Of a stretch of DNA of 64,000 nucleotides, positions 9,921-58,682 are shown in pieces. The notes beneath the pieces are model-generated. The model had not been told where the DNA came from and did not search any database. It worked only from the letters and a program-made list of their open reading frames with translations. Origin of the DNA: Candidatus Melainabacteria bacterium (lineage in GTDB: Bacteria > Cyanobacteriota > Vampirovibrionia > LMEP-6097). The stretch covers positions 12,133-76,132 of the forward strand of contig JABHOV010000059.1 of the NCBI GenBank assembly GCA_018695135.1, in the 5' to 3' direction. The position numbers were made by a program, and so were the translations under genes. Numbering within the stretch: the first letter of the stretch is position 1; each line of letters begins with the position of its first letter.

Positions 9921-10808
9921 ATGCAGCTTCAGGATCTCAATTTATCAGAGCTTACGAAAGTAGCGATTCACAAAAGTGTGTCAGAAGAACTTATTTTTGA
10001 TGCCAATGTTTCTGTAGCTTTGTTTCAATTAGGCGAGCCGCCAATGACCTATTATCATCTGCATGGCGCAGAGAATTATCATCCTGCTAGTTTAATTAAA
10101 TTATTTCAAGCTTACTTGGCTAAATACAAAATCCAAAGCAATGTTGTAGATTTTGCCAGAGAAAAAATAGCCGAAACAGATTCTTTTGCATCATCTAATC
10201 ATATGGAGGATGTTTACCAGGCAATCGAGGCAAGTCTCAAAGACTCTGATAATGATGCTTTGAGTTATTTAGTGGACTACAATAGTGGTGTTTGTTCAGG
10301 TCCCCGGCTTGACGAAGAGGATTTTGCTATTTTTAAAGAAGCGCGCGGCGAGCTTAGTGAGTTTTTTCACGGACGAGGTTATAGCAAGAGCCTCAATATT
10401 CCAGGCAAGTGTTTTAGTTTTGCACCTTACGGTAGAGAGACTCAATTGAGCTTGGAGACAGGCGGGCTTGGAACTAATAGCATCAGTGTTCAAGATGTTG
10501 TACAAATTATGTACGCAATCAAAGTTGATTTCCCTGAATTATTAGAATCATTGAGGCGAGATATTGATGACACGGAAGATGAGCAAGTGCAGTTTATTGC
10601 AACTGGTTTGCGCTGCTACAGTGATCAAATTGAGGCTTACTATTCCAAGGCAGGTTGGACTTCGAGGGTTAGGCATGACGTGGCTTATATCAAGGTTAGA
10701 ACAGGCGAAGAATATATTTTGGCAATCATGACTAAGAATTTAAGTGAGTGTACTGATTTGATTCCCGAGATTGCAGAGTGGGTTATAGGATCTTTGTTTA
10801 AAGATTAA
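9921..10808 (+). CDS. Serine hydrolase, class A beta-lactamase-like
   Basis: SLIK (SxxK), SDN and KAGW(KTG-like) elements in expected order. Confidence 0.5.
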   Translation: MQLQDLNLSELTKVAIHKSVSEELIFDANVSVALFQLGEPPMTYYHLHGAENYHPASLIKLFQAYLAKYKIQSNVVDFAREKIAETDSFASSNHMEDVYQAIEASLKDSDNDALSYLVDYNSGVCSGPRLDEEDFAIFKEARGELSEFFHGRGYSKSLNIPGKCFSFAPYGRETQLSLETGGLGTNSISVQDVVQIMYAIKVDFPELLESLRRDIDDTEDEQVQFIATGLRCYSDQIEAYYSKAGWTSRVRHDVAYIKVRTGEEYILAIMTKNLSECTDLIPEIAEWVIGSLFKD

Positions 10809-10811
10809 CTG

Positions 10812-10860
10812 CCTTAAGTGAGTGCAAAGCTCTCTCGTGAGCTTTGCGCTCACTTAAGAC
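10812..10860. terminator. Bidirectional hairpin between convergent genes (CTTAAGTGAGTGCAAAGCTC..GAGCTTTGCGCTCACTTAAG)
   Basis: 20-bp inverted repeat read in sequence; no strong U-run. Confidence 0.5.
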
Positions 10861-10862
10861 GG

Positions 10863-11285
10863 TTAATCTTTGCCATCAATACTAAATTTGCCAGCACCAT
10901 GAGTTAGCAAGACGGAGAGCATTATAAAGTAGTAAAAAGGAATTTCAAAACCGTTAGCACTTGCAGCAAAACCGTTTTTAAAATGCACAACAAAGATTGC
11001 AACGAGCATTGTTACCATTAGTGGTAGCGCAAAGAATCTGGTTTTGAGGCCAAGCACTAAGGCAATTACACCAAGAGATTCTGCTCCTGTTGCCATAACC
11101 GCATTGAGATATGGAAATGGTAAGTGAAGACTATGTTCAAACCACATAACGATGTCGTTGAAATGAGTTAGTTTCTTGAGTGCAGGTTCATAAAAGCCAT
11201 AAGCTAGTGTGAAACGCAAAATCAATAAAGAGAGATCAGCAAAAGAGCTAGTAATTCTATTATATAAGGCTATTAAACTGTTCAT
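10863..11285 (-). CDS. DoxX family membrane protein
   Basis: Four TM helices, DoxX-like length and motif layout. Confidence 0.65.
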   Translation of the reverse strand: MNSLIALYNRITSSFADLSLLILRFTLAYGFYEPALKKLTHFNDIVMWFEHSLHLPFPYLNAVMATGAESLGVIALVLGLKTRFFALPLMVTMLVAIFVVHFKNGFAASANGFEIPFYYFIMLSVLLTHGAGKFSIDGKD

Positions 11286-11439: not shown

Positions 11440-11560
11440 AACCGGTTTTTATTAGAGATCCTGCAAAACTTTGTTTTGCTAGTGATGTCGACACAAAAAA
11501 GTTTGGAACGGTGCGAAGCGCTAGTTCCTGGAGTGAAGAGGATGGGCTTTTTTACAATAA
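11440..11560. repeat. Family 1 structured repeat, intergenic copy (core CCTGCAAAAC-TTT-GTTTTGCTAGTGATGTCGACA..GGAACGGTGCGAAGCGCTAGTTCC)
   Basis: Shares a ~70-nt core with copies at 14545-14665 and 58255-58370. Confidence 0.85.
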
Positions 11561-13769: not shown

Positions 13770-14987
13770 ATGGATAGAAATGGACAAAGATTGGACAATG
13801 TCATCAGCCTTGATCTAAAGCTACAAGGTTTGATTAGTTCTAAATTAAAAAACATTGATCAGTTTAATCTAACTTGGTCAGAATTCGAGTTGAAGGAATC
13901 ACAAGAGTTTTTGCGTGAACTTAAAGAGCTTTCTACTATTCAGAGTATTGGTTCTTCTACGAGAATTGAGGGTTCTAAATTACAAGATGATGAAATTAAA
14001 ACCTTGATCGATAATTTAGATATTAATAAGCTTAAGTCGCGTGATGAAGAGGAAGTGAGCGGCTATTATGAAGCTCTTGATTTGATCTACGAAAATCATG
14101 AGAATTTATTTTTGAGTGAATCATATATAAAGCAATTGCATGCAATTTCGCTTAAGTATAGTTCAAAGGATACTCGCCACCGAGGAGATTATAAATCATT
14201 GTCTAATAAAGTGGTTGCTCAGTATCCTGATGGAAGTTCCAGGGTCGTTTTTGATACTACTGAGCCATACCTAGTGGCAAAAGAGATGACTGATTTGATT
14301 GATTGGTCTAATGAAAGACTTTCATATTCTGGGATTCATTCCTTGATGGTGATAGCTGTTTTTGTTTATGAGTTTCTTTCTATTCACCCTTTTCAAGATG
14401 GCAATGGCCGTTTGTCTCGCTTACTGACCAACTTGTTAATGATGAAGTCAGGTTATAAGTTTGTTCAATATATTTCTTTTGAGCATGTGATTGAACAAAG
14501 AAAAAAAGAATACTATCAAAATCTAATGGAGGCTCAGTCTCAGCGGTTTACGAGACACCCTGCAAAACATGGTTTTGCTAGTGATGTCGACATAAATAAG
14601 GTCGGAACTGTGCGAAGCGCCAGTTCCGCTAATGAAGAGGCGGAGGGCTTTCATGTGAACTGTGCCGCAAGGGAAGATCTTGGCATGTGGATGGTATATT
14701 TCTTAGATTGTGTTGAAAACCTAATCTCAAAACTTAAAACTAAGTTGCACACAAATGATGATCATTGTTTAGATGATTCTGGAGTAAATTTAAGTTCAAC
14801 TCAGAAACAAATCTACACTTTGATCAGCACGAATAAGTCTAGTAAAGTTGAGGATCTGATGAAAGTTTTTCCTGAGATAACGAGACCGACTATTAAATAT
14901 AGTTTGTCGAGGCTTGTTGAGCTTGGTTTAATCAGTCGCCATGGAAGAGGGCGAGGGACTTGGTACCAGACCGCTAAAGCTTACTAA
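13770..14987 (+). CDS. Fic family protein (AMPylase/Doc-like) with N-terminal inhibitory motif STRIEG and C-terminal winged HTH; carries in-frame family-1 repeat
   Basis: HPFQDGNGRLSRLL Fic motif; (S/T)xxxE(G/N) motif near the N-terminus. Confidence 0.85.
   Translation: MDRNGQRLDNVISLDLKLQGLISSKLKNIDQFNLTWSEFELKESQEFLRELKELSTIQSIGSSTRIEGSKLQDDEIKTLIDNLDINKLKSRDEEEVSGYYEALDLIYENHENLFLSESYIKQLHAISLKYSSKDTRHRGDYKSLSNKVVAQYPDGSSRVVFDTTEPYLVAKEMTDLIDWSNERLSYSGIHSLMVIAVFVYEFLSIHPFQDGNGRLSRLLTNLLMMKSGYKFVQYISFEHVIEQRKKEYYQNLMEAQSQRFTRHPAKHGFASDVDINKVGTVRSASSANEEAEGFHVNCAAREDLGMWMVYFLDCVENLISKLKTKLHTNDDHCLDDSGVNLSSTQKQIYTLISTNKSSKVEDLMKVFPEITRPTIKYSLSRLVELGLISRHGRGRGTWYQTAKAY
14545..14665. repeat. 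Family 1 structured repeat inserted in frame in the Fic ORF (encodes ..RHPAKHGFASDVDINKVGTVRSASSANEEAEGF..)
   Basis: Nucleotide identity to copies at 11460-11528 and 58266-58345. Confidence 0.85.
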
Positions 14988-16284: not shown

Positions 16285-16307
16285 TGTGCTGTTTTAATTA
16301 TACCCAT

Positions 16308-16397
16308 TGGGGTCGTATCCTGACATTGGACATTTCTACGGGTTAGGTATTATCACCTTGTTATTAGTTCAAAATGTCCAATGTCAGGATACGACCC
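16308..16397. repeat. Family 2 palindromic element: 26-bp arms GGGTCGTATCCTGACATTGGACATTT / reverse complement around a ~36-nt unique loop
   Basis: Exact inverted repeat; same arms at 47237-47325 and 54184-54276. Confidence 0.9.
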
Positions 16398-16451
16398 TGA
16401 TGGGTCATATGGACTATCTAGATATCCCAGTTAAAGCCGATTAACTATTAT

Positions 16452-19944: not shown

Positions 19945-20127
19945 ATGCTCCCCTTTGGTATCGGTATCCCTGAACTTATAGTTATCTTAGTGATAGCACT
20001 AATTATATTTGGGCCTAAAAAGCTTCCTGAGCTTGGCAAAAACCTTGGCAAGGGCTTGAAGAGCTTCAAGTCTGGTATGGAAGAAGCAACCGACGAATTT
20101 AAATCTGAAGTCAAAGATTCTGACTGA
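19945..20127 (+). CDS. tatA: Twin-arginine translocase subunit TatA/E
   Basis: [25 protein letters not shown]. Confidence 0.85.
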
Positions 20128-20130
20128 AAA

Positions 20131-20171
20131 GTCCCATCTGCTGTGTTACATCTTTTCGTCGTATTACGGGG
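20131..20171. repeat. Family 6 short repeat (reverse orientation of CCCCGTAATACGAYGAAAAGAYGTAACRCAGCAG)
   Basis: ~36/41 identity with 29619-29659. Confidence 0.7.
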
Positions 20172-20186
20172 TATTAAACAAGGATC

Positions 20187-29575: not shown

Positions 29576-29618
29576 CAGGGTTGTTGAATACGCATAGTTT
29601 AGACAAGCCGAACTGATA

Positions 29619-29659
29619 CCCCGTAATACGATGAAAAGACGTAACGCAGCAGCTGGGGC
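29619..29659. repeat. Family 6 short repeat CCCCGTAATACGATGAAAAGACGTAACGCAGCAGCTGGGGC
   Basis: Near-identical to reverse complement of 20131-20171. Confidence 0.7.
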
Positions 29660-29672
29660 TTTGCAAGCAGAT

Positions 29673-31162: not shown

Positions 31163-31352
31163 CCACCCACGTTGAGCCTTCAGATAAGATCCCACCCGCT
31201 GCGTGACATACGCCACTTTTAAGATAAATCGTCTACACAATGGTATTTCTCTGTTGAGTCAGTTTTAGATATCATTTATCTTAAAAGTGGCGTATGTCAC
31301 GCAGCGGGTGGGATCTTATCTCAAAAAGTGGTAAAGGTTGAGACGTGGGTGG
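31163..31352. repeat. Family 4 palindromic element, copy B (~190 bp): termini CCACCCACGTTGAGCCTT / AAGGTTGAGACGTGGGTGG, 49-bp inner inverted repeat
   Basis: Read in sequence; shares 18-bp termini with 5911-6032. Confidence 0.85.
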
Positions 31353-34472: not shown

Positions 34473-35663
34473 ATGCTACTTCAATCTTCTTATTACTGTT
34501 TTCTCGCTTTCATCGCGTCAAGCTTTTTTAGTCCGACAGCTAGAACTATTTTCTTAGTTGCTGGATTGCTTTTGTGGGCTATTGCGTCGTGGCGAGAGCC
34601 AACAACATTTGCGTCAATCCAAGCTGGTCTTAGTAAGGACTTACAAGTATTAAACAGGCTGTTCATTATATATATTTGTGTCAATTCTGTTCTTGCGTAT
34701 ATGCATGACTTGAGTATTTTTGCCTGGATCAAAACATTGCTGGGTACTTATGCTCAATGGTTTTGGGCACTTGCTTTATTGGCTGGTCTCAAGTTTGATT
34801 TTCAAAACAAAATCAGGTTAACTGTAATTGGAGTATCATCATTTACTAGTGTGCTGATCGTGTTGCAGCTGATTGGTTTAGTACCGATGGTTGGAGATTA
34901 TTATGGAGTTTTGTCTCAGGCTTTTACTAGTTCTGGGATGATTTTGGTTGGTTTGTTTTTGAGCTTGGCTCAGTTTAAATCTATTCCTTCTACTAATAGA
35001 CTTACTGAGAAAGCCCCCTTTACTAATGGAACTAGTGCGCCGCACCGTTCCGACAATTACCGCTTTGCTTTTGGACTAGCCTCTTTTGTGCAACTGATCG
35101 CATTATTCGCTCTAGGACAGCGTTCTGTCTGGGCAGGTTTGATTTTGTCTCTATTGTTTTATTTGATTATGACTAAGCAATATCTCAAAAAGAGTTTTTG
35201 GCTTGCCTTGGTTCTTTTGATACTAACTGGCAGTTTTGTGATTTCAAGTTCTGAGCGTGTCGGTCGTAAAGTTGAGCGTTTTGCAAATCCTCATTATTGG
35301 ACTCAGGCTAACAGTATTAAAGTCAGACAAGAACTGTGGCAGATTAATAAAGAGGCGTGGCAAGCTAAGCCATTGACCGGAATTAATGAAATCATTAAGC
35401 ATGAGGGATTGAGGCATGCACACAATATTTATTTCCAGCAACTTTATACTGGTGGCTGGCTTAGATTTATTGCTTGGTTGAGTTTTTATTTAGTCGCGGG
35501 ATTCTTTTTGTTTCGTCGAATTACAACAGCGCCTGAGTTTTTTGCTATCTATATTGCGCTGAGTGCAGAAGGAGTTTTGGAGAATTGGTGGGGAGATAGC
35601 GAGGTTCTGAGCTTGTTTTTAGTGGCTTTGATATTGGGATTGGGGAAGAAATATAAGGAATAG
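34473..35663 (+). CDS. O-antigen ligase (WaaL/Wzy_C) family membrane protein; start moved past the repeat
   Basis: ~10 TM helices and AHNIYFQQL motif in periplasmic loop. Confidence 0.5.
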   Translation: MLLQSSYYCFLAFIASSFFSPTARTIFLVAGLLLWAIASWREPTTFASIQAGLSKDLQVLNRLFIIYICVNSVLAYMHDLSIFAWIKTLLGTYAQWFWALALLAGLKFDFQNKIRLTVIGVSSFTSVLIVLQLIGLVPMVGDYYGVLSQAFTSSGMILVGLFLSLAQFKSIPSTNRLTEKAPFTNGTSAPHRSDNYRFAFGLASFVQLIALFALGQRSVWAGLILSLLFYLIMTKQYLKKSFWLALVLLILTGSFVISSSERVGRKVERFANPHYWTQANSIKVRQELWQINKEAWQAKPLTGINEIIKHEGLRHAHNIYFQQLYTGGWLRFIAWLSFYLVAGFFLFRRITTAPEFFAIYIALSAEGVLENWWGDSEVLSLFLVALILGLGKKYKE

Positions 35664-38376: not shown

Positions 38377-39414
38377 ATGCGTTACCTCTGCTTGATTCTA
38401 TTATTGTTTAGCTCTTCTGCTTGTTCTAAAAAAGCTGCCCCGGTTGCTGCCGTAAAACCATTATTTGTCAAAGCAGAAGCTGCAACTACCGGTGATATAG
38501 AGCGTGCCTTTGAAACGGCTGGTGAACTGAAAGCGGATAAAGAGATTTTGGTTGCAGCTGAGCGGCCGGGGATGGTCAAAGAGATTTATGTGCGTGAAGG
38601 ACAATGGGTTAAGGCAGGTCAGGCTTTGATTCAAATAGAGGGTAAGGATGTTGATGCTGATTTAAAAAAAGCACAAAGTGATTTTGCTTCTTACCAAAAC
38701 CTGTTTGATCAGGGAGCTATTTCTAAACAAGAACTAATTAATTATGAAGCTCAACTGCGTAGAGTCGAGTCACAGATTGATAATCTCCAGATTAATGCAA
38801 TTAGTTCTGGATTTATTGGGGTGATATATGTTGATCCTGGTGACTATGTTAAACGAGGTGATAAGATTCTGGATTTGGTTAAGATTTATCCATTGAGAGT
38901 GAGTTATTCGGTGCCAGAGAAATTGATCTCCAAAATTTTAATTGGACAAAGCGTAGAACTACGTACTGACTCAGAAGCTGGCAAGGTTTTTAATGCAAGT
39001 GTTGATTTTATTTCACCAAGAGTTGATCCTAATACTAGAGCGGTTTTAGTTCGCGGGAAAATCAATAGCCCAAGTACTAATCTCAAAGCTAATCAGTTTG
39101 TTACTGTCAAACAAGTTATTAATAGTTCTAATACGACTTTATTGGTGAGAGAAGAAGCGCTCTATCTTAATCAAGGACAGGAGTATTTGTATCTCGCGTC
39201 GTCATTGCGAGCCGAGGCGAAGCAAGCTAATGTAGAGACTCCGGAGATCGACGCGTCTGATGAACTTGTAGCCAAACGTGTAGCTGTAAAAACCGGTCAG
39301 AGACAAGAAGGCATGGTAGAAATTTTAGAAGGTATTGAAGCTGGTGACAATGTGATCTATGCTGGTTTGCATAGTATTTATCCTGGGGCTAAGTTGGTTT
39401 TGGTTAGTGACTAA
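38377..39414 (+). CDS. RND efflux periplasmic adaptor (membrane fusion protein), lipoprotein; contains family-3 repeat fragment
   Basis: Lipobox SSSAC, coiled-coil hairpin, lipoyl and beta-barrel segments. Confidence 0.8.
   Translation: MRYLCLILLLFSSSACSKKAAPVAAVKPLFVKAEAATTGDIERAFETAGELKADKEILVAAERPGMVKEIYVREGQWVKAGQALIQIEGKDVDADLKKAQSDFASYQNLFDQGAISKQELINYEAQLRRVESQIDNLQINAISSGFIGVIYVDPGDYVKRGDKILDLVKIYPLRVSYSVPEKLISKILIGQSVELRTDSEAGKVFNASVDFISPRVDPNTRAVLVRGKINSPSTNLKANQFVTVKQVINSSNTTLLVREEALYLNQGQEYLYLASSLRAEAKQANVETPEIDASDELVAKRVAVKTGQRQEGMVEILEGIEAGDNVIYAGLHSIYPGAKLVLVSD
39193..39260. repeat. Family 3 repeat fragment inside adaptor ORF (..TCGCGTCGTCATTGCGAGCCGAGGCGAAGCAAGCTAATG..CGACGCG)
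   Basis: Left arm near-identical to 51136-51167. Confidence 0.75.
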
Positions 39415-40043
39415 GATCCTTGCTGTAATTTCATATAGTTGTTAATTGCTGTTACTGGATCGTAGTAAGAGTCAGTAGTTTCTCGCTTCACCGTTAGAAG
39501 TATGTCAAAGACATCATGATAGACATCGTCTGATTTAATCTTTTGTGTATCTGCTCCTGCTACTTCGAAATTAGAATCAAATATGAGAATAGAAAGATCG
39601 CTTATTGTCGAGAAGCTGTGATCAGCAGGGAAGTCAGCGACTATTTGGTCACTCAGTTTGTAGGCGAGTTGTTGAATATATGCCTCTGGCATTTGTTCTA
39701 TCTTTTTTCTAAATGCACTTGATATTTCTGTGCGCATTTTTTCATTTGACACGAGGCTACGCGGGAAGAGACCAGCATCTAGTTGTCTATCTTCTGGCAC
39801 GCTGAACTCACCAGGAATTACATTACTTGTTGTTGGACTGCTAGTTACTGCAGCAAGTCGTCTGGCAATTTCTTCTGCTTTGCCTGTGGCCTCAGTAAGA
39901 CTTGTAGAGCTATCTATAAGTTGGTGACCGAGAGCATGCGTGAAGGCATGTGATACTTGCGCTGCGTTCACTCCCTTTTGTACATAAGAACTATTAGAAG
40001 GTGTTTTGTTTACTTCCATATTTCTTATCTTAGTACGCCCCAA
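39411..40043 (-). CDS. Hypothetical protein, antisense ORF sitting between adaptor and RND pump genes
   Basis: 210-aa ORF in AT-rich DNA; HAFTHALGH segment; no family recognised. Confidence 0.35.
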   Translation of the reverse strand: MGRTKIRNMEVNKTPSNSSYVQKGVNAAQVSHAFTHALGHQLIDSSTSLTEATGKAEEIARRLAAVTSSPTTSNVIPGEFSVPEDRQLDAGLFPRSLVSNEKMRTEISSAFRKKIEQMPEAYIQQLAYKLSDQIVADFPADHSFSTISDLSILIFDSNFEVAGADTQKIKSDDVYHDVFDILLTVKRETTDSYYDPVTAINNYMKLQQGS

Positions 40044-40067
40044 ATTGCTAAGATTGTAACAACAGCA

Positions 40068-43000
40068 ATGAAAATCAGCTCTTTACCAGATTTAGCAATT
40101 CAAAAACCAGTACTGGCAACAGTGATGTCTTTGGTTATTGTTTTTGCAGGAGTCCTTGCTTGGACTAATTTGCCGGTGCGTGAATACCCGGATATTGATC
40201 CGCCGGTAATTACTGTGACGACGGTTTATCCTGGTGCAAGTTCAACGGTTATAGAATCAGAAATTACCGACCTTATTGAAACAGAACTTTCTGGGATTGA
40301 AGGTATCAAGTCGATGGTCTCAAGTTCAAGAGATCAGGTTAGTAGTATTGTGCTGGAGTTTGTGCTTGACCGCAATATCGATATCGCTGCTCAGGATGTG
40401 CGTGACAAGGTCGCTAGAATATCAAGGCGCCTGCCTGACAATAGTGATGATCCGGTTATTGCCAAGGCTGATTCGGACGCGCAGCCCATTATGTGGATTT
40501 TAGTTCAATCTAAGAACTTGTCTGGGAAGACCCCTCTGCAGGGTGTCGCTGAGCCTTCTCAAACAGACTCTCCTGAAAGAAACCTAATGGACTTAGCTGA
40601 GTATGTTGATCAGGAGATCAAGGATTATTTTCAAAATGTGCCAGGGGTCTCCAAGGTTATTTTTGGTGGGGAGCGCCGCCGTGCTATTCAGGTTTTGCTT
40701 GATACCAAGAAACTTGCTTACTACGGTATTTCGGTAATTGATATTGAAAAAGCATTGCGCGAGAATAATATCGAATTGCCGGCTGGTAGTATTCTCTCGA
40801 AGACCAAGGAATTTAGTATCAATGTCGATGCCAAATTAACCAAGCCCGAACAGTACGCCAATATCAGTATTAAGGATTCTCGTTTTGGCAAGGTCAAACT
40901 CAAAGATGTGGCGCAAGTGATACTTGGAGCTGAAAATGATAAGAGTTTTGTACGTTTCAATGGGCATCAGGGTTTTGGATTGGGTATCGTTAGGCAAGCT
41001 AAATCTAATACCATTCAAATCTCAGATGATGTGCATAAATTAGTCAAAGAATTGCAAAAGAAAATCCCTGAGGATATTGAACTTGCTGTTGGTTATGATG
41101 CTGCTGAATTTATTCGCTTGAGCTTGCAGGAATTGTACATGACCATTTTCCAAGCAACACTATTAGTGCTTTTGGTGATTTTTGTGTTCTTGCGTAATAT
41201 CAGAAGTACTTTGATTCCTGGTTTGGCAATTCCTATTAGTCTTGTTGGTGTGATGATTGGGATTCAAGCTTTTGGTTTTACGCTCAATCAAATGACTCTC
41301 TTGGGTTTGATTATTGCAATTGGGATTGTGGTGGATGATTCGATTATTGTGCTTGAGAATATTTATAGGTATATAGAACAAGGCATGGAAGCCAAGGCTG
41401 CAGCCAAAAAGGGTGCTGAAGAAATTAGTTTTGCGGTAATTGCAACAACTCTGGTTTTGATCTCTATTTTCTTGCCAATTGGTTTTCTGTCAGGGATTAC
41501 TGGTAGACTGCTGTCTGAGTTTGCTTTTTCACTATGCTTTGCTACAAGTATTTCTAGTTTTGTTGCTTTGACAATTGCGCCGATGCTTTGTTCCAAGGTT
41601 TTTGCGGTGAGCTCTTCACCCAAAGCTGATGAAAAGACAACGGCTCTCAAGAGTTTTTATTCAGGTCTTAAAATAGTATTAGAGAACTTCTTCATTCGCT
41701 TAGAGAGGTTCTATACAGGAATTCTTGATTCTGCTTTAAAGAATAAGACAAAACTAATTAGCATTGTCTTGCTTAGCTCAGTTGTTCTATCCGTCTTTCT
41801 TTTTACTAATTTGCCTAAGGACTTTATTCCAGATGAAGACAGAGGTACTTTCTTTGTGATCTTTAAGAGTACTCGCGGTAGCAATATCGGGGTGATTGAT
41901 AAACAGATTCGTAAGGTAGAGTCTTTTTTGGCTACTATCCCTGAAGTGACGATGACCATTGCTGTTGCAGCCTTTGGGCGCGATGCTCCTGGTAAGGTGA
42001 CAGAGGGGATTATAATTACCAGGCTCAAAACTTGGAAAGAGCGAGCCAAAAAAGTCGGAGCAATTGTTGGTCCACTTTACCCAGTATTTTTTGCGATGCC
42101 AGAGGTTTTTACTTTGCCAATCATGCCCAAGTCTGGTCCAGATAGTGGTTTTGGCTCACAGCCAATACAGCTAGTGCTCAAGTCTAATAATCTTGATTTC
42201 TTAGTTAAGGCTTCAGCGCAAATTACTCAAGCATCATTTGGCTTGCCAGCTTTGATGTTTGCTAGATCCAATTTGAGTCTTGATAAACCAGAACTCACAG
42301 TTGATATCAACCGCGACAAGGCTCAGAGTCTTGGTTTGTCGATGGAAGACATCTCTAAATCGATAGAGCTTTTGTTTACTGGAATTGATGTAACAGAGTT
42401 TAATGATAATGGTGAGAACTACAAGGTAATATTGACGGTGGCTCGCAAGGAGCGGGAGAACGTGCGCAAGATTGGTGAGTTTGCTTTGAGAAATGATCAA
42501 GGAGAGATGATTCAATTGAGTAATTTGATTACGGTAAGAGAAACAATTGGAGCTGAGGATCTTAATCATCACAATCGCAAGAAATCAGTGACTATTGAAG
42601 CATCACCCAAAGAAGGAGTTACGCCTTCTGACGGGTTGAAGGCATTAGAGACTTTGGCTAAATCCCTTATTGAAGGGATGGAGGACGTGCCGGCTGATTT
42701 TGAGATGGATTATTTAGGCACTTCTAAGGAGCTTAGAGACTCTGATGCAGCTTTGTATTTTGGTTTTATGGTTGCTCTGGTTTTTGCTTATCTATTCTTG
42801 GCGGCACAGTTTGAGAGCTTTGCCTCGCCAGTGATTGTGATGCTAACAGTGCCACTTGCGTTGATTGGCGCCTTGTTGGGTTTGTATGCTTTTCAATTCT
42901 TTCCGTGGCTTACACAAACACTCGTTGGGATTTTGGGCGAGAAATTCTTTTGGCTCAAGTTTGTTATTCCACAGTTTAAAAATATGAGCTTGAATATCTA

Positions 43001-43322
43001 TTCTCAAGTAGGGATGATTATGCTTATTGGCATGGCAACCAAAAACGGAATTTTGCTTGTTGAATTTATGAATCAACTTCGCGAGCAAGGAATGTCAACG
43101 ATGGATGCAATTAAAGAAGCAGCGCGCTTGCGTTTGCGACCTGTGCTGATGACAGCGATTTCAACGGTGCTTGGTTTATTGCCAATCGCTTTAGCGCTTG
43201 GTGTTGGTACCGAATCTAGGCAAAGTCTTGGGGTGGTGATTATTACGGGGATGACTGTTGCAACTGTTTTGACTTTGGTTTTGGTGCCTGCAGTTTATGC
43301 TGTGTTTTACGGGAAGAAATAG
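40068..43322 (+). CDS. RND (HAE1/AcrB-type) efflux transporter permease; start moved to MKISSLPDLAIQKPV
   Basis: 12-TM AcrB architecture, two large periplasmic loops. Confidence 0.9.
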   Translation: MKISSLPDLAIQKPVLATVMSLVIVFAGVLAWTNLPVREYPDIDPPVITVTTVYPGASSTVIESEITDLIETELSGIEGIKSMVSSSRDQVSSIVLEFVLDRNIDIAAQDVRDKVARISRRLPDNSDDPVIAKADSDAQPIMWILVQSKNLSGKTPLQGVAEPSQTDSPERNLMDLAEYVDQEIKDYFQNVPGVSKVIFGGERRRAIQVLLDTKKLAYYGISVIDIEKALRENNIELPAGSILSKTKEFSINVDAKLTKPEQYANISIKDSRFGKVKLKDVAQVILGAENDKSFVRFNGHQGFGLGIVRQAKSNTIQISDDVHKLVKELQKKIPEDIELAVGYDAAEFIRLSLQELYMTIFQATLLVLLVIFVFLRNIRSTLIPGLAIPISLVGVMIGIQAFGFTLNQMTLLGLIIAIGIVVDDSIIVLENIYRYIEQGMEAKAAAKKGAEEISFAVIATTLVLISIFLPIGFLSGITGRLLSEFAFSLCFATSISSFVALTIAPMLCSKVFAVSSSPKADEKTTALKSFYSGLKIVLENFFIRLERFYTGILDSALKNKTKLISIVLLSSVVLSVFLFTNLPKDFIPDEDRGTFFVIFKSTRGSNIGVIDKQIRKVESFLATIPEVTMTIAVAAFGRDAPGKVTEGIIITRLKTWKERAKKVGAIVGPLYPVFFAMPEVFTLPIMPKSGPDSGFGSQPIQLVLKSNNLDFLVKASAQITQASFGLPALMFARSNLSLDKPELTVDINRDKAQSLGLSMEDISKSIELLFTGIDVTEFNDNGENYKVILTVARKERENVRKIGEFALRNDQGEMIQLSNLITVRETIGAEDLNHHNRKKSVTIEASPKEGVTPSDGLKALETLAKSLIEGMEDVPADFEMDYLGTSKELRDSDAALYFGFMVALVFAYLFLAAQFESFASPVIVMLTVPLALIGALLGLYAFQFFPWLTQTLVGILGEKFFWLKFVIPQFKNMSLNIYSQVGMIMLIGMATKNGILLVEFMNQLREQGMSTMDAIKEAARLRLRPVLMTAISTVLGLLPIALALGVGTESRQSLGVVIITGMTVATVLTLVLVPAVYAVFYGKK

Positions 43323-45661: not shown

Positions 45662-47236
45662 ATGTCTAATTTTCGTTATCGCAGCATACAAATACTCATT
45701 GCTTTAGCATTTCTTGCTATCTTGGGACGTTTATTTCAATTTCAAATTCTTAATGGGCAAAAATATTCTGCTTACATTAAGCGCTATGGACAGACCTACA
45801 AAATTAGTCCTGCAAGAGCAGAGATTGTTGATCGTAACGACAAAGTACTTGCTTTGGATTTGATGAAATATACACTTGAATATAATCCCGTGACTACTAG
45901 TGAGGATAGAGGCATGCTTGCTTTCAAACTAGAGCAAATGATTGATTTGAAAGATCCAGAAGATCTCAATGCTAGTTATAGTAAGACTCTTGCGCATGGT
46001 TTGAGTCGCGAACAGGCAAACAAAATTAGGAAGCTTGATTCCAAATTATTATACTTGCGTCAAGTTAGGCGCAGATTTTATCCACAAGATGAGCTGGCTT
46101 CTCATGTGCTTGGCTATGTTGATCTTTATGGACAAGCAAGGCAAGGTATTGAAGCTGACTATCAAAAGAGATTAGAAGAAGACTCAGAGAACAAGCTTAG
46201 ATTGAGCTTGGATTCTCGCTTGCAAGTTTTTGCCGAAACAGAATTAAAGAAGCGAATTGCTGAAACGAAGGCGGCAAGAGGGACTGTTTTGTTAATGGAA
46301 GTTGCTACTGGACAAATGATGGCAATGGCTACTAGCCCAGGATTCAATCCTAATAACTATTTTGATTTTAGTTTGTCACAAATTAAAAACTGGCCTTTGG
46401 TTGATGTCTATCAACCGGGTTCTATTTTTAAGATAGTGACAGTGGCATCTGCCCTAGAGTCTGGGACTATAGATTTGAGTCATCGTTTTGTAGATGAAGG
46501 CTTTTTGGAGATTGATAAATGGAAAATCAAAAATCATGAATACAAACTAGGTAAGACTGAGGCTGAGGAATTGAATCTGCAAAACTTGTTTGAACGATCA
46601 AGTAATACTTTTGCTGCACATCTGGCACTAGCAATGGGTCCTAAGGTTTTTCATGATCAGATTAGCAAGTTTGGCTTTGGGCAAAAAACGGGGATCGAAT
46701 TAAGTGGGGAGTCCAAGGGTATTTTGCTTAAGCACAAAAAATGGCGTAAGTCCGATACTGCAACTACAGGCATGGGTCATGGTGCCATTTCTGTTACTCC
46801 GTTACAGTTGCTGGCAGCAGCTAATGTCATTGCCAATGACGGTCATTGGGCTAGACCGACTTTGTTTCTTGATTCTAAACAGCCGTTGGCTGAAGAGCTT
46901 GAACCAATTATCAGTGCTGAGCATGCTTATAGTATTAGAAATCTTTTGGCAAGAGCCATTGATCACAATTTGAAATTCAAATCTAGCGTGGCTGGACGTG
47001 TTGATAATTTGACGATAGCTGGTAAAACTGGCACAGCAGAGAAAATCAAAGCAGGTGGAGGCTACTCCAAAAAAGAAACAGTCGCTTCTTTCTTAGGTTT
47101 CTTCCCGGCTTATAATCCAAAATATATCGCCTTAGTTGTAATTGATGATCCCAAGACTGATGGTCGTTGGGGTGATACTGTGGCTGGACCTTTGTTTAAC
47201 AAGATTGCTGCTTACACTAGAGACTTGTATTTATAA
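45662..47236 (+). CDS. Penicillin-binding protein, FtsI/PBP2-type transpeptidase
   Basis: N-terminal TM anchor, SIFK (SxxK), KTGTAE. Confidence 0.85.
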   Translation: MSNFRYRSIQILIALAFLAILGRLFQFQILNGQKYSAYIKRYGQTYKISPARAEIVDRNDKVLALDLMKYTLEYNPVTTSEDRGMLAFKLEQMIDLKDPEDLNASYSKTLAHGLSREQANKIRKLDSKLLYLRQVRRRFYPQDELASHVLGYVDLYGQARQGIEADYQKRLEEDSENKLRLSLDSRLQVFAETELKKRIAETKAARGTVLLMEVATGQMMAMATSPGFNPNNYFDFSLSQIKNWPLVDVYQPGSIFKIVTVASALESGTIDLSHRFVDEGFLEIDKWKIKNHEYKLGKTEAEELNLQNLFERSSNTFAAHLALAMGPKVFHDQISKFGFGQKTGIELSGESKGILLKHKKWRKSDTATTGMGHGAISVTPLQLLAAANVIANDGHWARPTLFLDSKQPLAEELEPIISAEHAYSIRNLLARAIDHNLKFKSSVAGRVDNLTIAGKTGTAEKIKAGGGYSKKETVASFLGFFPAYNPKYIALVVIDDPKTDGRWGDTVAGPLFNKIAAYTRDLYL

Positions 47237-47325
47237 GGGTCGTATCCTGTCATCTGACATTTCAATGTATTACAAACGATCTTAATTAGTGATACACTGA
47301 AATGTCAGATGACAGGATACGACCC
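47237..47325. repeat. Family 2 palindromic element, variant arms GGGTCGTATCCTGTCATCTGACATTT with three compensatory changes in the partner arm
   Basis: Both arms read in sequence. Confidence 0.9.
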
Positions 47326-47871
47326 TGTTTGGCGCAGGAAATCTTCATGTGCATTTTTATTGGTGTAGTTGGTAACGCGCAAATAAGCTGACCAAGGTAT
47401 TTGATTTTCGCTTGCAACTTTGGCTATACCGTAGAGCTCCATGTTTTCTATAATTGCGTCTGTTTGATAATGTTTAATAATTTGTTTGGAGATAGTCTCG
47501 TCTTGAGTGATTTCAAGACTTGAGAGGCATAAAATATTCTTTGAATCTGGATGACTGGCGTGAAGAATAGGATAAATATCTTTGATAGTGTAGCTAAGTC
47601 CTTGAACTGATCCGAGATTTAAAAGAGCTGCAGCACTAACTATGATTTGCTCGCCAATCTTGATATTTTGGCTATAGGCACCGGCTGTGCCAGTAAAGAT
47701 GATTTCGGAGATATCGTTTCTTGATTGAAGTAGTTTAGAGAGATTGACAGCTGCTTCAAGATAGCCAATGCCAAGTACCTCTAAAATATGGGTTTTACTG
47801 GTTAAATAGGGCAAATCCGCTGGATTCTCTGCTAGTTCGTTTTTGCAGGCTGCGCAAATAAGGCTTGTCAT
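47305..47871 (-). CDS. PNP/MTAN-family nucleosidase, possible futalosine hydrolase MqnB
   Basis: Short 188-aa MTAN-like layout (..IIFTGTAGAY..). Confidence 0.55.
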   Translation of the reverse strand: MTSLICAACKNELAENPADLPYLTSKTHILEVLGIGYLEAAVNLSKLLQSRNDISEIIFTGTAGAYSQNIKIGEQIIVSAAALLNLGSVQGLSYTIKDIYPILHASHPDSKNILCLSSLEITQDETISKQIIKHYQTDAIIENMELYGIAKVASENQIPWSAYLRVTNYTNKNAHEDFLRQTGSYPVI

Positions 47872-49189: not shown

Positions 49190-50052
49190 CCTACTTGATT
49201 GAAGCTGATGACTTGGTTGCAACAGTGCCTGGGACTTTGACATTGAAAGATTTGGATAGTGATTTAATTCAACAGTGTTTAATTTCTACTTTGCTTGCTC
49301 CAGCTCATTATACAATTGCACAAATCTTGGCAGAGGATTGGGGACATGACGCTAGGCAGGTTCTGGGACTTGGTTTGAAACATGCCAGTGGCTTGCATAC
49401 CAAAACCGGCGGCAAGGTAATCAAAAATGTATCTGGTTATGATTTGAGTAAAATATATTTAGGTAGTTGCGAATCCTTGGCAAAGATTGAAACAGCAAGT
49501 TTGCGTTTGGAGAAACTACCATTATTGATTTGTGAATTGAGCTTGAAGCTTGAACGAGAACTTGATCTTGACTTGATTGTTTTTTTGCACAAAATAGCGA
49601 CGATGGATTTTGATGAGAGTTTTGATGTGGAATTAAATATGCTCGGTGAGATCAAGTTGAGTTTTACTGCCACAAGTAAAGAACTCATGGCTTTGAAACA
49701 AGCTCGCTTGGCTAGAAGGCTAGAAGGTTTTTGGGATCATGAACTTAGTTTGGATTTTGTGGTACAGCCTTATAAAAAACAATACCCCAGTACTGATTTA
49801 AGGATTGAAATTCATGGAGTTTTGACGACTTTGCTCAATACCGCAAAGTCATTAGGGCAGCCTTGTCAGATCTACCCCAAGAGAGGCTATCTACTGTTAG
49901 AGTCTTCTGTCCAGAATTTAAAAAAGCTAGATGATTGTTACTACTATGTTTATCCCAAGACCGATGAAAACAAAAAACTAGAAACCCAGTTGAACGATAC
50001 TGATAACGCAGAGTTGGATTTATTCAAACAACTCCAAAAGGATTTTGCTTAA
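49186..50052 (+). CDS. GlcE-like FAD-binding subunit lacking the N-terminal part of the FAD_binding_4 domain
   Basis: KTGGKVIKNVSGYDLSKIYLGS motif of glycolate oxidase GlcE; starts where GlcE homologs are ~90 aa in. Confidence 0.55.
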   Translation: MTYLIEADDLVATVPGTLTLKDLDSDLIQQCLISTLLAPAHYTIAQILAEDWGHDARQVLGLGLKHASGLHTKTGGKVIKNVSGYDLSKIYLGSCESLAKIETASLRLEKLPLLICELSLKLERELDLDLIVFLHKIATMDFDESFDVELNMLGEIKLSFTATSKELMALKQARLARRLEGFWDHELSLDFVVQPYKKQYPSTDLRIEIHGVLTTLLNTAKSLGQPCQIYPKRGYLLLESSVQNLKKLDDCYYYVYPKTDENKKLETQLNDTDNAELDLFKQLQKDFA

Positions 50053-51344
50053 TGGACGCAGCGACGATTAATGAAACGATTAAGGCTTGTATTCATTGCG
50101 GTATCTGCCTGCCAGCCTGCCCGACTTATCAGGTAACAGGTAATGAAGGACATTCGCCGCGTGGAAGATTGTACTTAATTAATGATCTCTTGACTAATGA
50201 GACTGGAGCCAGGGAAGATGTCGTTGAGTATTTGGATGGCTGCCTTGAATGCTCCGCCTGTGAAACGGTCTGTCCATCAGGTGTTGACTATGTCAATATT
50301 CTTGAATATGCTCGCCATGAATTGGGTCTGAGCAATTACACTAAGGGCTTTATGGCTGCTGTTAGACGCCTGGTGTTCCAGTATTTATTGCCGAATAGAG
50401 TCTTGTTGAATCTGGCAAGAGTGATGGGGCGTTTTTTGCCTTTGCGGTTATTCAATAAGCTAGCGCCGGGTTTTGATTTTGAATACAAAAAAATCAAGAC
50501 GGATTATATTTATAAATCTCAAAGTCGGACTTCGCGGACAGTCTCCATGCCACTGGGTTGTGTAATGGATACGATTTATAATGATGTGCATTGGGATAGT
50601 ATTCAAGTACTCAACGCTTTTGGTTATGATGTCTATATACCTGAAACTCAGTGCTGCGGTGCTCTTGCTTATCATAGTGGTGAAAACAAACTTGGTGAAA
50701 AACAGCTTGAGGAAACCACGTCGATACTAGCTAAGCATCAGTATCCAGTAGTAATGAACTCAGCGGGTTGTGGGGCTTTTATTAAAAATCATTCTGATTT
50801 AGAATCGATGGATTTAATTGAGGCTTTGAAACAAGCACCGTCATTGCGAGGAGCAGACGCGGCGCGGCAATCTAACGCAGGGGACTGGATTGCCACGCAC
50901 TCTTTGAGTGCTCGCAATGATGAAATAATTTATGCCGTTTACCACCCTGCCTGTCATCTCAATCATAAGCAAGGAGTCTCGCAAGACTATGTTGAATTGT
51001 TGAAAAGAATCCCAAGTTTGGAATTAATACCACTACATGAAGCAGACCTTTGTTGCGGCTCGGCTGGATTTTATAATTTAATTCAAAGCAAGCTTGCTGG
51101 TGAGATTGGTAAACGTAAGGCAGAGAATATTACATCGTCATTGCGAGCGTTAGCGAAGCAATCTAATGCAAGATCCAAGGGCGCGGCAATTAAATTCTCT
51201 GTATTAGATTGCTTCGCTAACGCTCGCAATGACGTGATTGTACTTACTGCAAATCCCGGTTGCATGTCTCAAATCCAAGCTCACTTGGGTGATGAATATC
51301 AAGTTATGCATCCTATTAGTTTGATTAAGCAATACTTGAATTAG
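50052..51344 (+). CDS. glcF: Glycolate oxidase iron-sulfur subunit GlcF-like with two in-frame family-3 repeat insertions
   Basis: Two CxxCxxCxxxCP ferredoxin motifs, two CCG domains. Confidence 0.8.
   Translation: MDAATINETIKACIHCGICLPACPTYQVTGNEGHSPRGRLYLINDLLTNETGAREDVVEYLDGCLECSACETVCPSGVDYVNILEYARHELGLSNYTKGFMAAVRRLVFQYLLPNRVLLNLARVMGRFLPLRLFNKLAPGFDFEYKKIKTDYIYKSQSRTSRTVSMPLGCVMDTIYNDVHWDSIQVLNAFGYDVYIPETQCCGALAYHSGENKLGEKQLEETTSILAKHQYPVVMNSAGCGAFIKNHSDLESMDLIEALKQAPSLRGADAARQSNAGDWIATHSLSARNDEIIYAVYHPACHLNHKQGVSQDYVELLKRIPSLELIPLHEADLCCGSAGFYNLIQSKLAGEIGKRKAENITSSLRALAKQSNARSKGAAIKFSVLDCFANARNDVIVLTANPGCMSQIQAHLGDEYQVMHPISLIKQYLN
50839..50922. repeat. Family 3 palindromic repeat, copy inside GlcF (CGTCATTGCGAG..CTCGCAATGATG)
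   Basis: Arms CATTGCGAG/CTCGCAATG with nested GGCAATC/GATTGCC. Confidence 0.8.
51136..51234. repeat. Family 3 palindromic repeat, full copy: 32-bp perfect arms CGTCATTGCGAGCGTTAGCGAAGCAATCTAAT / ATTAGATTGCTTCGCTAACGCTCGCAATGACG
   Basis: Read in sequence; in frame in GlcF. Confidence 0.9.
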
Positions 51345-52692
51345 TCGTTTGACAAAAACTCCTAGCCACCTTAGCTATATTACCCGCTCCCACTATAAAT
51401 AAATAATCGCAGTCTTGTAAATGTCCGTCTTCTCTCTCGTTTTCGCTCCGCTTCGACGCGATGAAACTTTCAATACCAGGTCTCAGAGCAGCTACCATAT
51501 CAGCATGATTACCTTGGCTAGTAGCTCTTGTATCTATCGGTGCTAAGAACTGCACATTGGTTTTATTAATTGCAGCAACCAGTGAAGCCGAATCAACACC
51601 ATTGATATGCTGACTACGAGCTACATAAATATCAGCAATCAAACAAAGATGCGGTTCAGGAAATTCTTTGAAGACTTCTATAAAATCATTCCAAAATTGT
51701 TGAGTACGTTCTGGGTGATGTGGTTGATATACAAAAACTAGTCGTTTGGGATTGAGGCTTAGAACTCCTTCTAACAGTGCTCGCAGTTCGGTGGGGTGGT
51801 GGGCGTAGTCATCATATACACGAATGCCGTTATAGTCTGAATTGATCAGTTCAAAACGGCGCTTGATGCCATTAAAAGATTGAAGAGCTTTAATTGCAGC
51901 TTCTGTGTTAAGCCCTAGTGCCTCTGCTGCTTTGATGCAACCCAATGCATTGAGCTTATTGTATTCACCTGGCATTGTTAATTGAATGTCGTAGTCATTT
52001 AATTCAGAACTTGAATATCTAATCAAAGTCTTTCCACTCGATTGCTTCGCTTCGCTCGCAATGACGTATTCCTTGAGTAACGCATCATCCATATTAACAA
52101 CAGCAATTTCTGCACTATCAAGAAATTTATAAAAACAATCACGAATCTCATTCAGTCCACCAGGATAGTTCTCAAGATGGTCTTCTTCAATACAAGTAAC
52201 CAAGGCTAGATATGGATTGGTAATGGTAAAGCTCTTGTCGCTTTCGTCACCCTCGAGCACAAAATACTCTCCAGAACCTGCTTTGGCATTACTCTGATAA
52301 TTCGATAGAATTCCACCTACTGCAAAACTAGGATCAAAACCAGTCTCAACTAAAATATGTGCAAGCATCGCTGAGCAAGTGGTTTTGCCATGAGTGCCCG
52401 AGATGACAATTTGTTTGTGTCCTTGAGATAAATAATTCAGCATATCTCTGCGGTGCCAAACAGGCAAGCTGCGAGATTTGAGTTCGAGGTAATCAGCATC
52501 ACCGATACCAATTGCAGTACTGCGCACTACTAAGTCAATATCATTATCGAGTGGATCATTCTCTGTGTAACTTAAATCACTTTTAGAAATTTTGACCTCT
52601 GGTTTTTGCTGAGCAAGGATTTTAACCAGTGCAGACATACCGATGCCTTCGGCACCTAAAAATCTTGCATGTTTAAATCTCTCTTGAGACAT
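51325..52692 (-). CDS. murC: UDP-N-acetylmuramate--L-alanine ligase with two family-3 repeat fragments in frame
   Basis: ISGTHGKTTCSAML, DDYAHHPTE, C-terminal VGAGNIAK. Confidence 0.85.
   Translation of the reverse strand: MSQERFKHARFLGAEGIGMSALVKILAQQKPEVKISKSDLSYTENDPLDNDIDLVVRSTAIGIGDADYLELKSRSLPVWHRRDMLNYLSQGHKQIVISGTHGKTTCSAMLAHILVETGFDPSFAVGGILSNYQSNAKAGSGEYFVLEGDESDKSFTITNPYLALVTCIEEDHLENYPGGLNEIRDCFYKFLDSAEIAVVNMDDALLKEYVIASEAKQSSGKTLIRYSSSELNDYDIQLTMPGEYNKLNALGCIKAAEALGLNTEAAIKALQSFNGIKRRFELINSDYNGIRVYDDYAHHPTELRALLEGVLSLNPKRLVFVYQPHHPERTQQFWNDFIEVFKEFPEPHLCLIADIYVARSQHINGVDSASLVAAINKTNVQFLAPIDTRATSQGNHADMVAALRPGIESFIASKRSENEREDGHLQDCDYLFIVGAGNIAKVARSFCQTTNSSIA
51425..51464. repeat. 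Family 3-related fragment inside murC 3' region
   Basis: Reverse complement TCATCGCGTCGAAGCGGAGCGAAAACGAG. Confidence 0.55.
52039..52066. repeat. Family 3 right-arm fragment inside murC (CGATTGCTTCGCTTCGCTCGCAATGACG)
   Basis: Near-identical to 51207-51234. Confidence 0.75.
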
Positions 52693-54160: not shown

Positions 54161-54183
54161 AGTGAAAAAGATTGTATCACATA

Positions 54184-54276
54184 GGGTCGTATCCTGACAT
54201 TGGACATTTGCTACACTATATATTATCCGCTGGGCAAAGTTATTTAACTAAAATGTCCAATGTCAGGATACGACCC
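54184..54276. repeat. Family 2 palindromic element, third copy
   Basis: Same 26-bp arms as 16308-16397. Confidence 0.9.
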
Positions 54277-54280
54277 TACT

Positions 54281-58109: not shown

Positions 58110-58682
58110 ATGAAAGTACGAAAACTAACAACAGATTACTTCAACCAAGTACATGATCTGATCAAGTTTTATTCTGAGCGTCGTTTGATGTTGCCACTTA
58201 GTCTTGATGAGCTTTATCATAGAGCGCAGGCTTATCGAATTATTGTAGGGGACAGCGATAGACATCCTGCAAAACAAGGTTTTGCTAGTGATGTCGCCAC
58301 AAAAGAGGTCGGAATCATGCGGAGCATGTGTTCCGCTAAGGGAAATGAGTTAGACCTTGGCAAGAAGCCTATGGGGACAGTCCTTGCTTGCGCTCATCTC
58401 GATATTTTTACACCACAACTCGCTGAAATCAAAAGCCTTGCTGTTATTGAAACGGAGCATGGTAAAGGCTATGGTAAGACTTTAGTCATGGATTGTGAGC
58501 AAGATGCCAAGGCTATTGGTATCAAGAAGCTTTTTGTCTTAACTTACCAACAGGATTTTTTTACTAAGCTCGGTTACCAGGTTGTTGATCGTAATACTTT
58601 GCCTGAGAAGGTCTATAAAGAATGCATCAAATGTAGCTATTTCGATGATTGTAATGAAATTGCGATGGTTAAGAGCCTCTAG
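58110..58682 (+). CDS. GNAT family N-acetyltransferase with in-frame family-1 repeat
   Basis: Acetyl-CoA binding ..EHGKGYGKTLV.. motif A. Confidence 0.75.
   Translation: MKVRKLTTDYFNQVHDLIKFYSERRLMLPLSLDELYHRAQAYRIIVGDSDRHPAKQGFASDVATKEVGIMRSMCSAKGNELDLGKKPMGTVLACAHLDIFTPQLAEIKSLAVIETEHGKGYGKTLVMDCEQDAKAIGIKKLFVLTYQQDFFTKLGYQVVDRNTLPEKVYKECIKCSYFDDCNEIAMVKSL
58255..58370. repeat. Family 1 structured repeat inserted in frame in GNAT ORF (encodes ..DRHPAKQGFASDVATKEVGIMRSMCSAKGNELDLGKKPMG..)
   Basis: Core CCTGCAAAAC-AAG-GTTTTGCTAGTGATGTCGCCACAAAAGAGGTCGGAATCATGCGGAGCATGTGTTCC. Confidence 0.85.

Follow-up and report, generated by a model that had tools for sequence, protein, structure and literature searches.

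The DNA analysed here, referred to as the window, is a 64,000-nucleotide stretch of the Candidatus Melainabacteria bacterium assembly GCA_018695135.1 (contig JABHOV010000059.1, positions 12,133 to 76,132 of the forward strand), with 39.6% GC and a coding content of about 92%. At 38377..39414 on its plus strand lies an intact open reading frame (ORF) of 345 amino acids for the periplasmic adaptor, or membrane fusion protein, of a resistance-nodulation-division (RND) efflux system (Pfam HlyD_D23, 1.4e-26), followed downstream on the same strand by the gene of an AcrB-type RND pump (39957..43322; Pfam ACR_tran, 1.6e-273). A segment within the adaptor gene probably represents the remains of a small palindromic repeat element, and it is this segment, together with the repeat family to which it belongs, that is considered here. 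Among 116 homologues of the adaptor, the nearest are named 'efflux RND transporter periplasmic adaptor subunit' and come from metagenome-assembled genomes of Cyanobacteria bacterium and Candidatus Caenarcaniphilales, and an identical protein is present on two further contigs. The AlphaFold2 (AF2) model of the adaptor has a mean predicted local distance difference test (pLDDT) score of 80 and matches full-length MexA, AcrA and TMexC with template modelling (TM) scores of 0.63-0.67.

The DNA at 39194-39256 reads TCGCGTCGTCATTGCGAGCCGAGGCGAAGCAAGCTAATGTAGAGACTCCGGAGATCGACGCG, which contains the letters quoted in the original prediction of a repeat half-element at this place, and the adaptor ORF is translated across it as ...YLYLASSLRAEAKQANVETPEIDASDELVAKR... 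/ ...QGQEYLYLASSLRAEAKQANVETPEIDASDELVAKRVAVKTG... The recognisable part is the left, or short, arm of a palindromic repeat at 39199..39234 (+), TCGTCATTGCGAGCCGAGGCGAAGCAAGCTAATGTA, laid out as YGTCATTGCGAG…GCGAAGCAATC and read S-L-R-A-E-A-K-Q-A-N-V; it was matched by nhmmer with an E-value of 8.1e-5 to a pan-bacterial profile. It carries the CGTC tag of the family, reading TCGTCATTGCGAG, and has AAG-C where the family has AAT-C. A decayed remainder derived from the insert follows at 39235..39264 (+), where the right boundary is approximate, in which GAGACTCCGGA is left over from the loop and the inner part of the right arm may also survive. This inner remnant (GATCGACGCGTC, where the consensus has GATTGCCGCGTC) fails to reach significance, as 109 of 2000 shuffled sequences score equally well, and the right terminus CTCGCAATGAC is missing in the alignment with the complete elements of the orthologues; the left arm is the sole statistically detectable part of the adaptor copy. 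Nor does the copy form a hairpin: the fold of its 70-nt region is no more stable than that of shuffled sequence (z +0.64), despite a flanking inverted repeat of 7 bp (CGCGTCG/CGACGCG).

At the protein level, an alignment of 23 orthologues places the insert directly after the invariant QGQEYLYLA, in a loop that is of variable length in every lineage. In the AF2 model the inserted residues (approximately 277-296) lie between strands at 268-276 and 297-303; residues 277-284 are drawn as a short helix, and at 287-294 the pLDDT drops below 50. The ORF is intact, the insert is limited to the low-pLDDT loop, and the remaining model matches MexA and AcrA, as would be expected of an in-frame insertion of the kind represented by the Rickettsia palindromic elements (RPEs). 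The insert is thus now present as about 22 extra residues in a predicted, low-confidence loop of the C-terminal domain, and this longer loop would be neutral for the adaptor. In the established AcrA/MexA architecture the C-terminal domain is the membrane-proximal one, a correspondence taken here at the level of domains and not residue by residue, and the model together with the MexA/AcrA match bears out the predicted location of the segment in the membrane-proximal region.

Copies of the Repeat in the Window

The segment had been proposed to be a partial copy of a repeat that is present twice in a glcF-like gene of the same window, and the comparison agrees with this. The DNA at 39199-39232 is 85% identical (29/34) to 51135-51168, which exceeds the 25 shared nucleotides below which the proposal was to be abandoned, and 39200-39238 is 82% complementary to 51196-51234. 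The 11-mer GTCATTGCGAG, with at most one mismatch, occurs seven times in the window against 0.88 expected, a number reached in none of 100 shuffles, and a 23-mer likewise found no match in 100 shuffles. A profile hidden Markov model was constructed from 61 complete copies, all of them from unrelated bacteria, and used in an nhmmer scan of the window; it recovered four places only, 51135-51234 (E 6e-12), 50838-50922 (9e-10), 52035-52067 (1e-8) and the adaptor copy at 39199-39234 (8e-5), and nothing else in the window scored below 0.01.

The complete sister copy at 51135..51234 (+) has 35-nt arms that are 97% complementary around a 29-nt loop; it is carried in frame by the glcF-like ORF 50052-51344, encodes SSLRALAKQSNARSKGAAIKFSVLDCFANARND, and as single-stranded DNA (51134-51236) folds with -42.3 kcal/mol (z -11.9). 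A second complete but more diverged copy is present in the same ORF at 50838..50922 (+; E 9.4e-10), where the profile fits best in the opposite orientation and the fold amounts to -22.1 kcal/mol (z -3.7). The two in-frame copies add about 28 and 33 residues to this gene (50052-51344, +), which encodes a protein with Fe-S and CCG domains. The fourth is a half copy, a single perfect arm CGTCATTGCGAGCGAAGCGAAGCAATCG at 52035..52067 (-; E 1.1e-8), in frame in a Mur-ligase ORF, 51325-52692(-) (Pfam Mur_ligase_M/C), and it is nearer to the pan-bacterial consensus than are the other copies of the window.

The sub-family of this lineage has one stop-free frame in each orientation, SLRALAKQSNA...DCFANARND. 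The SLR..KQSNA frame is used in the adaptor, in both glcF-like copies and, in a relative (locus L001), within a Wzy_C gene, and the resemblance between the peptides that had been pointed out is apparent in SLRAEAKQAN of the adaptor as compared with SLRALAKQSNA and SLRGADAARQSNA of the glcF-like copies, all in the same frame; the Mur-ligase half copy uses a different open frame, VIASEAKQSS. This usage is what the survival of non-disruptive insertions alone would give. The four copies of the window are all intragenic, but as about 92% of the window is coding, this does not differ statistically from random placement and is no sign by itself that genes are preferred. Among the relatives, the copy in the Wzy_C (O-antigen-ligase-like) gene, at 6753-6839 of L001, is in frame as SLR..KQSNA..WIAT, and a further copy occupies the gap between the Wzy_C and adaptor genes at 2246-2348 of L003.

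Orthologues and History of the Insertion

A comparison with adaptor orthologues, as the original prediction had advised, bears on the past of the segment. The four closest orthologues (loci L001, L368, L367 and L003) carry complete elements in the same loop and in the same frame (xxG TCA TTG CGA G, read S-L-R), and the left arm at 39199-39234 aligns column for column with theirs, whereas L369 and other more distant orthologues have a short loop of the ESGKGTEL type and no insert. Two forms are found. That of L367 and L003 measures 108 nt, GTCATTGCGAG...GCAATCTAATGCAGAG...GGATTGCCACGTC...CTCGCAATGAC, its right terminus having decayed to CTGGCAATGAC in L367; the other, in L001 and L368, measures 72 nt and bears a CCAG tail. 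The window shares with L367 and L003 a stretch of loop sequence outside the arms, CTAATGyAGAGrmTCmGGA, and its insert is 51 nt (17 codons) shorter than theirs, the right terminus being included in the loss. The copy has therefore been truncated in the window lineage, and its potential to form a hairpin has been lost. The term half-element is apt in that only the left arm can now be recognised, but it does not describe how the segment arose, as the orthologues carry the complete element that was later truncated.

A neighbour-joining tree of the proteins with the insert removed has the topology ((window,(L001,L368)),(L003,L367)), with L369 outside. The long form is most simply regarded as ancestral because it spans the deepest split of this tree. 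Between orthologues the identity of the insert follows that of the remaining gene and is no lower than it (87 vs 81%, 94 vs 93% and 80 vs 74%), and the insert has been kept in frame across approximately 25-30% protein divergence. The number of extra residues differs (22, 24 and 36), as does the offset of the insert from a conserved Ala codon (2, 5 and 11 nt). The shared site and frame, the loop sequence in common with L367 and L003, the tree and the parallel identities suggest a single ancestral insertion of a complete element into the adaptor gene.

The Repeat Family across Bacteria

The arm is by no means confined to this lineage. The pattern GTCATTGCGAG-N4-6-GCGAAGCAATC was scanned in genome and viral contigs, and a lineage-type variant ending in CTAA in metagenome contigs; at least 120 stretches were obtained from each of the three sources, from many phyla. 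The hosts among the genome matches listed include Bradyrhizobium, sphingomonads, Deltaproteobacteria, Bacteroidia, Microcoleus, Chloroflexi and Planctomycetota, as well as Legionellales, Rickettsiales, Melainabacteria, Sporomusa, Fibrobacter and Campylobacterales, with Bradyrhizobium and sphingomonads predominating. One very conserved arm thus spans Melainabacteria of 40% GC, high-GC Bradyrhizobium and viral contigs. In the viral contigs (at least 120; L246-L365, IMG/VR), the motif is often found near clustering ORFs that resemble phage structural genes.

In a complete element a short loop is enclosed by two arms in inverted orientation, YGTCATTGCGAG..GCAATC and GATTGC..CTCGCAATGACR. Of 141 arm matches, 95 have the inverted terminus of the partner, CTCGCAATGAC, within 260 nt, and the elements typically measure 70-90 nt. 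In the consensus, tcCGTCATTGCGAGCGaAGCGAAGCAATCCAG-loop-CTGGATTGCTTCGtcGCttcgctcCTCGCAATGACGgg, the asymmetry between a short and a long arm is conserved, and the units are mostly arranged as head-to-head dimers with a short tail (...GCAATCCAG-loop-CTGGATTGC...), which in the window lineage is CTAA. Among 159 complete copies the base before GTC (position -1) is C in 62% and T in 33% of cases, with G or A at the mirror position (+1), giving the terminal tag; direct repeats of 2-6 nt in the flanks, which would indicate a target-site duplication, are not enriched over shuffled pairings in the same copies. A single arm can form a 5-bp stem (ATTGC/GCAAT) around an interior of 12-18 nt, but this amounts to only -2.7 kcal/mol (z ~0), and it is the pairing of arm with arm that gives the stable structure. 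No Rfam family covers the element, either in the window at gathering thresholds or in an E-value search of eight loci with complete copies, the only matches being chance ones of miRNA models on hairpins, and full-text searches of the literature for the DNA string and the encoded peptides returned primers only, or nothing.

A Linked GIY-YIG Gene

The ORFs within 500 nt of the arm motif were clustered for about 360 loci. Among the 120 genome loci alone no recurrent gene was found, and the link with a GIY-YIG gene appeared once metagenome and viral loci were added, in the form of a cluster of single-domain GIY-YIG proteins of 95 amino acids (Pfam PF01541, 1e-14 to 1e-16). In 11 loci two arms bracket such an ORF. 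Eight of these cases had been selected by the arm (L092, L130 twice, L173, L176, L220, L034 and L366), and the other three, L370, L373 and L380 (with proteins P0133, P0235 and P0139), which were chosen solely for protein homology, all show the same arms on both sides. The geometry is constant: the left arm is followed after 20-110 nt by the ORF, and the stop codon of the ORF falls within GATTGC of the right arm or directly beside it; CTCGCAATGAC forms the end of that arm. The GIY-YIG ORF, in other words, sits in the loop of the palindrome.

At E<=1e-8 the 95-residue clade numbers at least 8000 clusters, which makes it very large. A scan of the viral contigs for it gave one locus, L366, where the arms are present. 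A search of the Protein Data Bank yielded weak matches to the UPF0213 structures 1zg2 (E 1e-6) and 1ywl (0.009), and a search of NCBIfam generic GIY-YIG matches only. Other neighbour clusters inspected resemble ABC ATPases and phage structural proteins.

Two arrangements at these loci deserve mention. In L373 and L377 the GIY-YIG ORF is preceded, at a distance of about 150 nt, by three truncated left termini in tandem, GTCATTGCGAGGAG, with some 15 unrelated nucleotides after each of them. In L366 (1340-2000) dimers without an ORF form an array in which the spacer is 10 nt, and one of them interrupts the right arm of the cassette. It looks as if insertion or cleavage had taken place repeatedly at the GTC boundary.

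Comparison with Known Repeat Systems

Two described systems resemble the family most closely. The first is that of the CGTC-tagged repetitive extragenic palindromes (REPs) of Di Nocera, De Gregorio and Rocco (2013; PMC3733652). [quoted passage not shown] The present family agrees with them in the terminal CGTC/TGTC tag, a palindrome that begins with AT, the short tail, the head-to-head dimers, the many alphaproteobacterial copies and the occurrence of in-frame intragenic copies. It differs in that the published units have a stem of 8-9 bp starting from A-T pairs and a loop of 4-5 nt, whereas the arms described here have stems of 5 bp, and in its Melainabacteria-like host, which is not among the species discussed in the parts of the account consulted (PMC3733652).

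The second is the NTS motif CGTCATTCCCGCGMAVGCGGGAATCYRG of Neisseria which, with related motifs known as SRM, flanks ssnA (Chenal et al. 2025, PMC11893778). This gene encodes a single-domain GIY-YIG nuclease of 94 amino acids (cd10448) that binds the motif as single-stranded DNA only and cuts a few nucleotides upstream; a GTC upstream of the palindrome and a C after it are critical, and the arrangement NTS-ssnA-NTS was noted by the authors to resemble an insertion sequence (PMC11893778). The present family shares the layout CGTC-ATT...AAT-C(YRG), the critical GTC and C being conserved in its consensus, and in both systems an oriented and very widespread motif is repeated on both sides of a single-domain GIY-YIG gene of about 94-95 residues (in the present case at 11 loci outside the window). 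A difference from the NTS of N. meningitidis, of which 2% are inside genes (PMC11893778), is that all four copies of the window are intragenic.

Further parallels can be drawn. As with the RPEs, an in-frame palindrome is found in unrelated housekeeping genes, where it is compatible with translation, is placed in loops and leaves the fold intact, and it is inherited and decays along lineages; the phylum is a different one, the elements measure approximately 70-108 nt as against about 150 nt for RPE-1, and the two were compared by description. [quoted passage not shown] A classical MITE of a DDE insertion sequence was rejected, since inverted termini are present but the 159 copies show no target-site duplication, as was a REP/REPIN system with its RAYT transposase, the tag being CGTC/TGTC and not GTAG and the recurrent linked gene being GIY-YIG (neighbours were not scanned for Y1/RAYT transposases). 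QMITE2 of Coxiella burnetii, an insertion hot spot of IS1111 with reported relatives of 83-100 nt in Bradyrhizobium and Rhodobacter (PMC5896051), may belong to the same CGTC/SRM-type family, a comparison made by description only.

Origin and Fate of the Insert

The explanation favoured here, with a probability of roughly 0.8, is that the adaptor segment is what is left of a small palindromic repeat element, now dead and passed on by vertical descent. The adaptor gene of an ancestor of the Melainabacteria-like clade would have received a complete element. The site is a hairpin loop of the C-terminal domain whose length varies naturally, and the frame is the one stop-free frame of the sub-family (SLRA.AKQSNA...ARND); because of this the protein stayed intact and the insertion was tolerated. 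Later the window lineage lost 51 nt with the right terminus, after which a hairpin was no longer possible. The family itself would be grouped with the CGTC-tagged REPs and the Ssn-related motifs, the ORF-less dimers either having arisen by internal deletion from a minimal cassette of the form arm-GIY-YIG-arm or being its cognate sites. The 95-residue nuclease of the cassette may act on the arm in single-stranded DNA (CGTCATTGCGAGCGAAGCGAAGCAATCCAG) and so spread the repeats. That the CGTCATTGCGAG...GCAATC arms and the bracketed gene constitute a minimal autonomous mobile element with the nuclease as its sole enzyme, that the ORF-less dimers are its non-autonomous derivatives, and that the adaptor relic is a fossil of its activity, is a tentative and rather doubtful extension of this scenario.

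The nearest competitor, although an unlikely one, is that insertion into this loop has been recurrent, the site being either a hot spot or simply tolerant, with the copy of the window an event of its own and possibly already truncated when it was inserted. The differing offsets from the conserved Ala codon would be accounted for in this way, as would the distinct short sub-type with its CCAG tail in L001 and L368, which are the nearest relatives of the window on the gene tree; moreover, the arm is so highly conserved throughout the family that arm identity alone cannot prove orthology. The loop sequence that the window shares with L367 and L003 lies outside the arms, however, and all five clade members have the insert in the same frame while the outgroups have none, and the divergence of the insert parallels that of the gene. 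Recurrent insertion is nonetheless retained as a rival because the short form of L001 and L368 calls for an additional step if a single event is assumed. It is considerably less probable that the extra peptide has been exapted and is now under selection as a functional part of the adaptor, for instance in contact with the pump or with lipid. In-frame retention over such protein divergence, an identity in the insert that is no lower than in the remaining gene and the short helix of the AF2 model could all be read in that sense, but the insert varies freely in length and sequence (22, 24 or 36 extra residues), the window lineage has deleted 17 codons of it, the model has low confidence over it, related adaptors work with a loop of 5-10 residues, and the same peptide occurs in unrelated proteins.

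A role at the level of nucleic acid, in which an mRNA or DNA hairpin would affect transcription, stability or recombination in the operon, is very improbable. Complete copies of the family do form very stable hairpins, and REPs have often been proposed to act as RNA elements (PMC3733652), but the adaptor copy has lost the arm with which it would pair and is no more stably folded than shuffled sequence, and neither the window nor complete copies elsewhere match any Rfam family. The least credible explanation of all is that the resemblance is due to chance or to faulty assembly. Only about 36 nt can be recognised, but they are detected (E 8e-5) by a profile derived from other phyla, the 23-mer finds no match in 100 shuffles, complete elements are found at this very site in four separately sampled orthologues, and the identical protein recurs on two further contigs.

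Several points weigh against the favoured scenario and its extension. The tree on which the single insertion is based comprises six taxa and is without support values, and the different, shorter sub-type in L001 and L368 requires an extra step of remodelling or conversion. With regard to the grouping of the family and to the nuclease, the arms of the window and of the pan-bacterial consensus fail the published SRM string HGTCWYN(0-2)YYVSBRHN(0-5)WNVSBRGN(0-2)RNCYNB, which has no match in the window although the NTS control matches; the weak fold of a single arm (-2.7 kcal/mol, z ~0) contrasts with that of the NTS (-9.0 kcal/mol, z -5.5); there is no GIY-YIG ORF within the window, and hence no current mobiliser is seen there; and the mobility of Ssn-associated repeats is in the literature a hypothesis, as yet undemonstrated.

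Neighbouring Genes and Other Repeats in the Window

Between the adaptor and pump genes lies a minus-strand ORF of up to 210 amino acids (39411-40043), which overlaps the stop codon of the adaptor. On the matching public contig a gene of 129 amino acids is called at this site, for which Pfam gives no match, and a minus-strand gene is likewise present between adaptor and pump in L001, L002 and L003.

The window also contains a second, unrelated palindromic family with arms AGGGTCGTATCCTGACATTGGACATTT, at 16297-16405, 47224-47331 and 54171-54278, whose arms are 93-100% complementary. Further long inverted repeats are found at 31179-31324 (51-nt arms, 98%), 5911-6032 (41-nt arms, 100%) and 10800-10871 (33-nt arms, 91%), and a distant inverted pair of 56 nt (86%) is formed by 20119-20174 with 29616-29671. 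A direct-repeat family of 94 nt is represented at 11448-11541, 14547-14640 and 58254-58347, with 83% and 69% identity to the reference copy, and one of its ends is complementary to 35015-35051.

Implications

The adaptor segment is an ordinary relic of selfish DNA, and it adds a new host clade and a new gene to the known in-frame insertions of the CGTC-REP or RPE kind. In itself the relic matters little, being a presumably neutral extension of a loop in one efflux adaptor. It is of use as a dated marker, showing that the family invaded coding sequence in a non-photosynthetic relative of the cyanobacteria, was inherited through roughly 25-30% protein divergence and decayed by in-frame deletions.

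Should the arms and the bracketed gene indeed constitute a mobile element, this would imply a transposition or homing chemistry that has so far been undemonstrated, with dimers spread over most bacterial phyla and phage contigs, and the coding sequences of Melainabacteria-like organisms would have been colonised much as those of Rickettsia have been by RPEs. The wider interest of the family lies in arms that escape the published SRM pattern and yet consistently bracket a tiny GIY-YIG gene; arms and gene together offer concrete substrates for testing whether nucleases of the Ssn type move these repeats.

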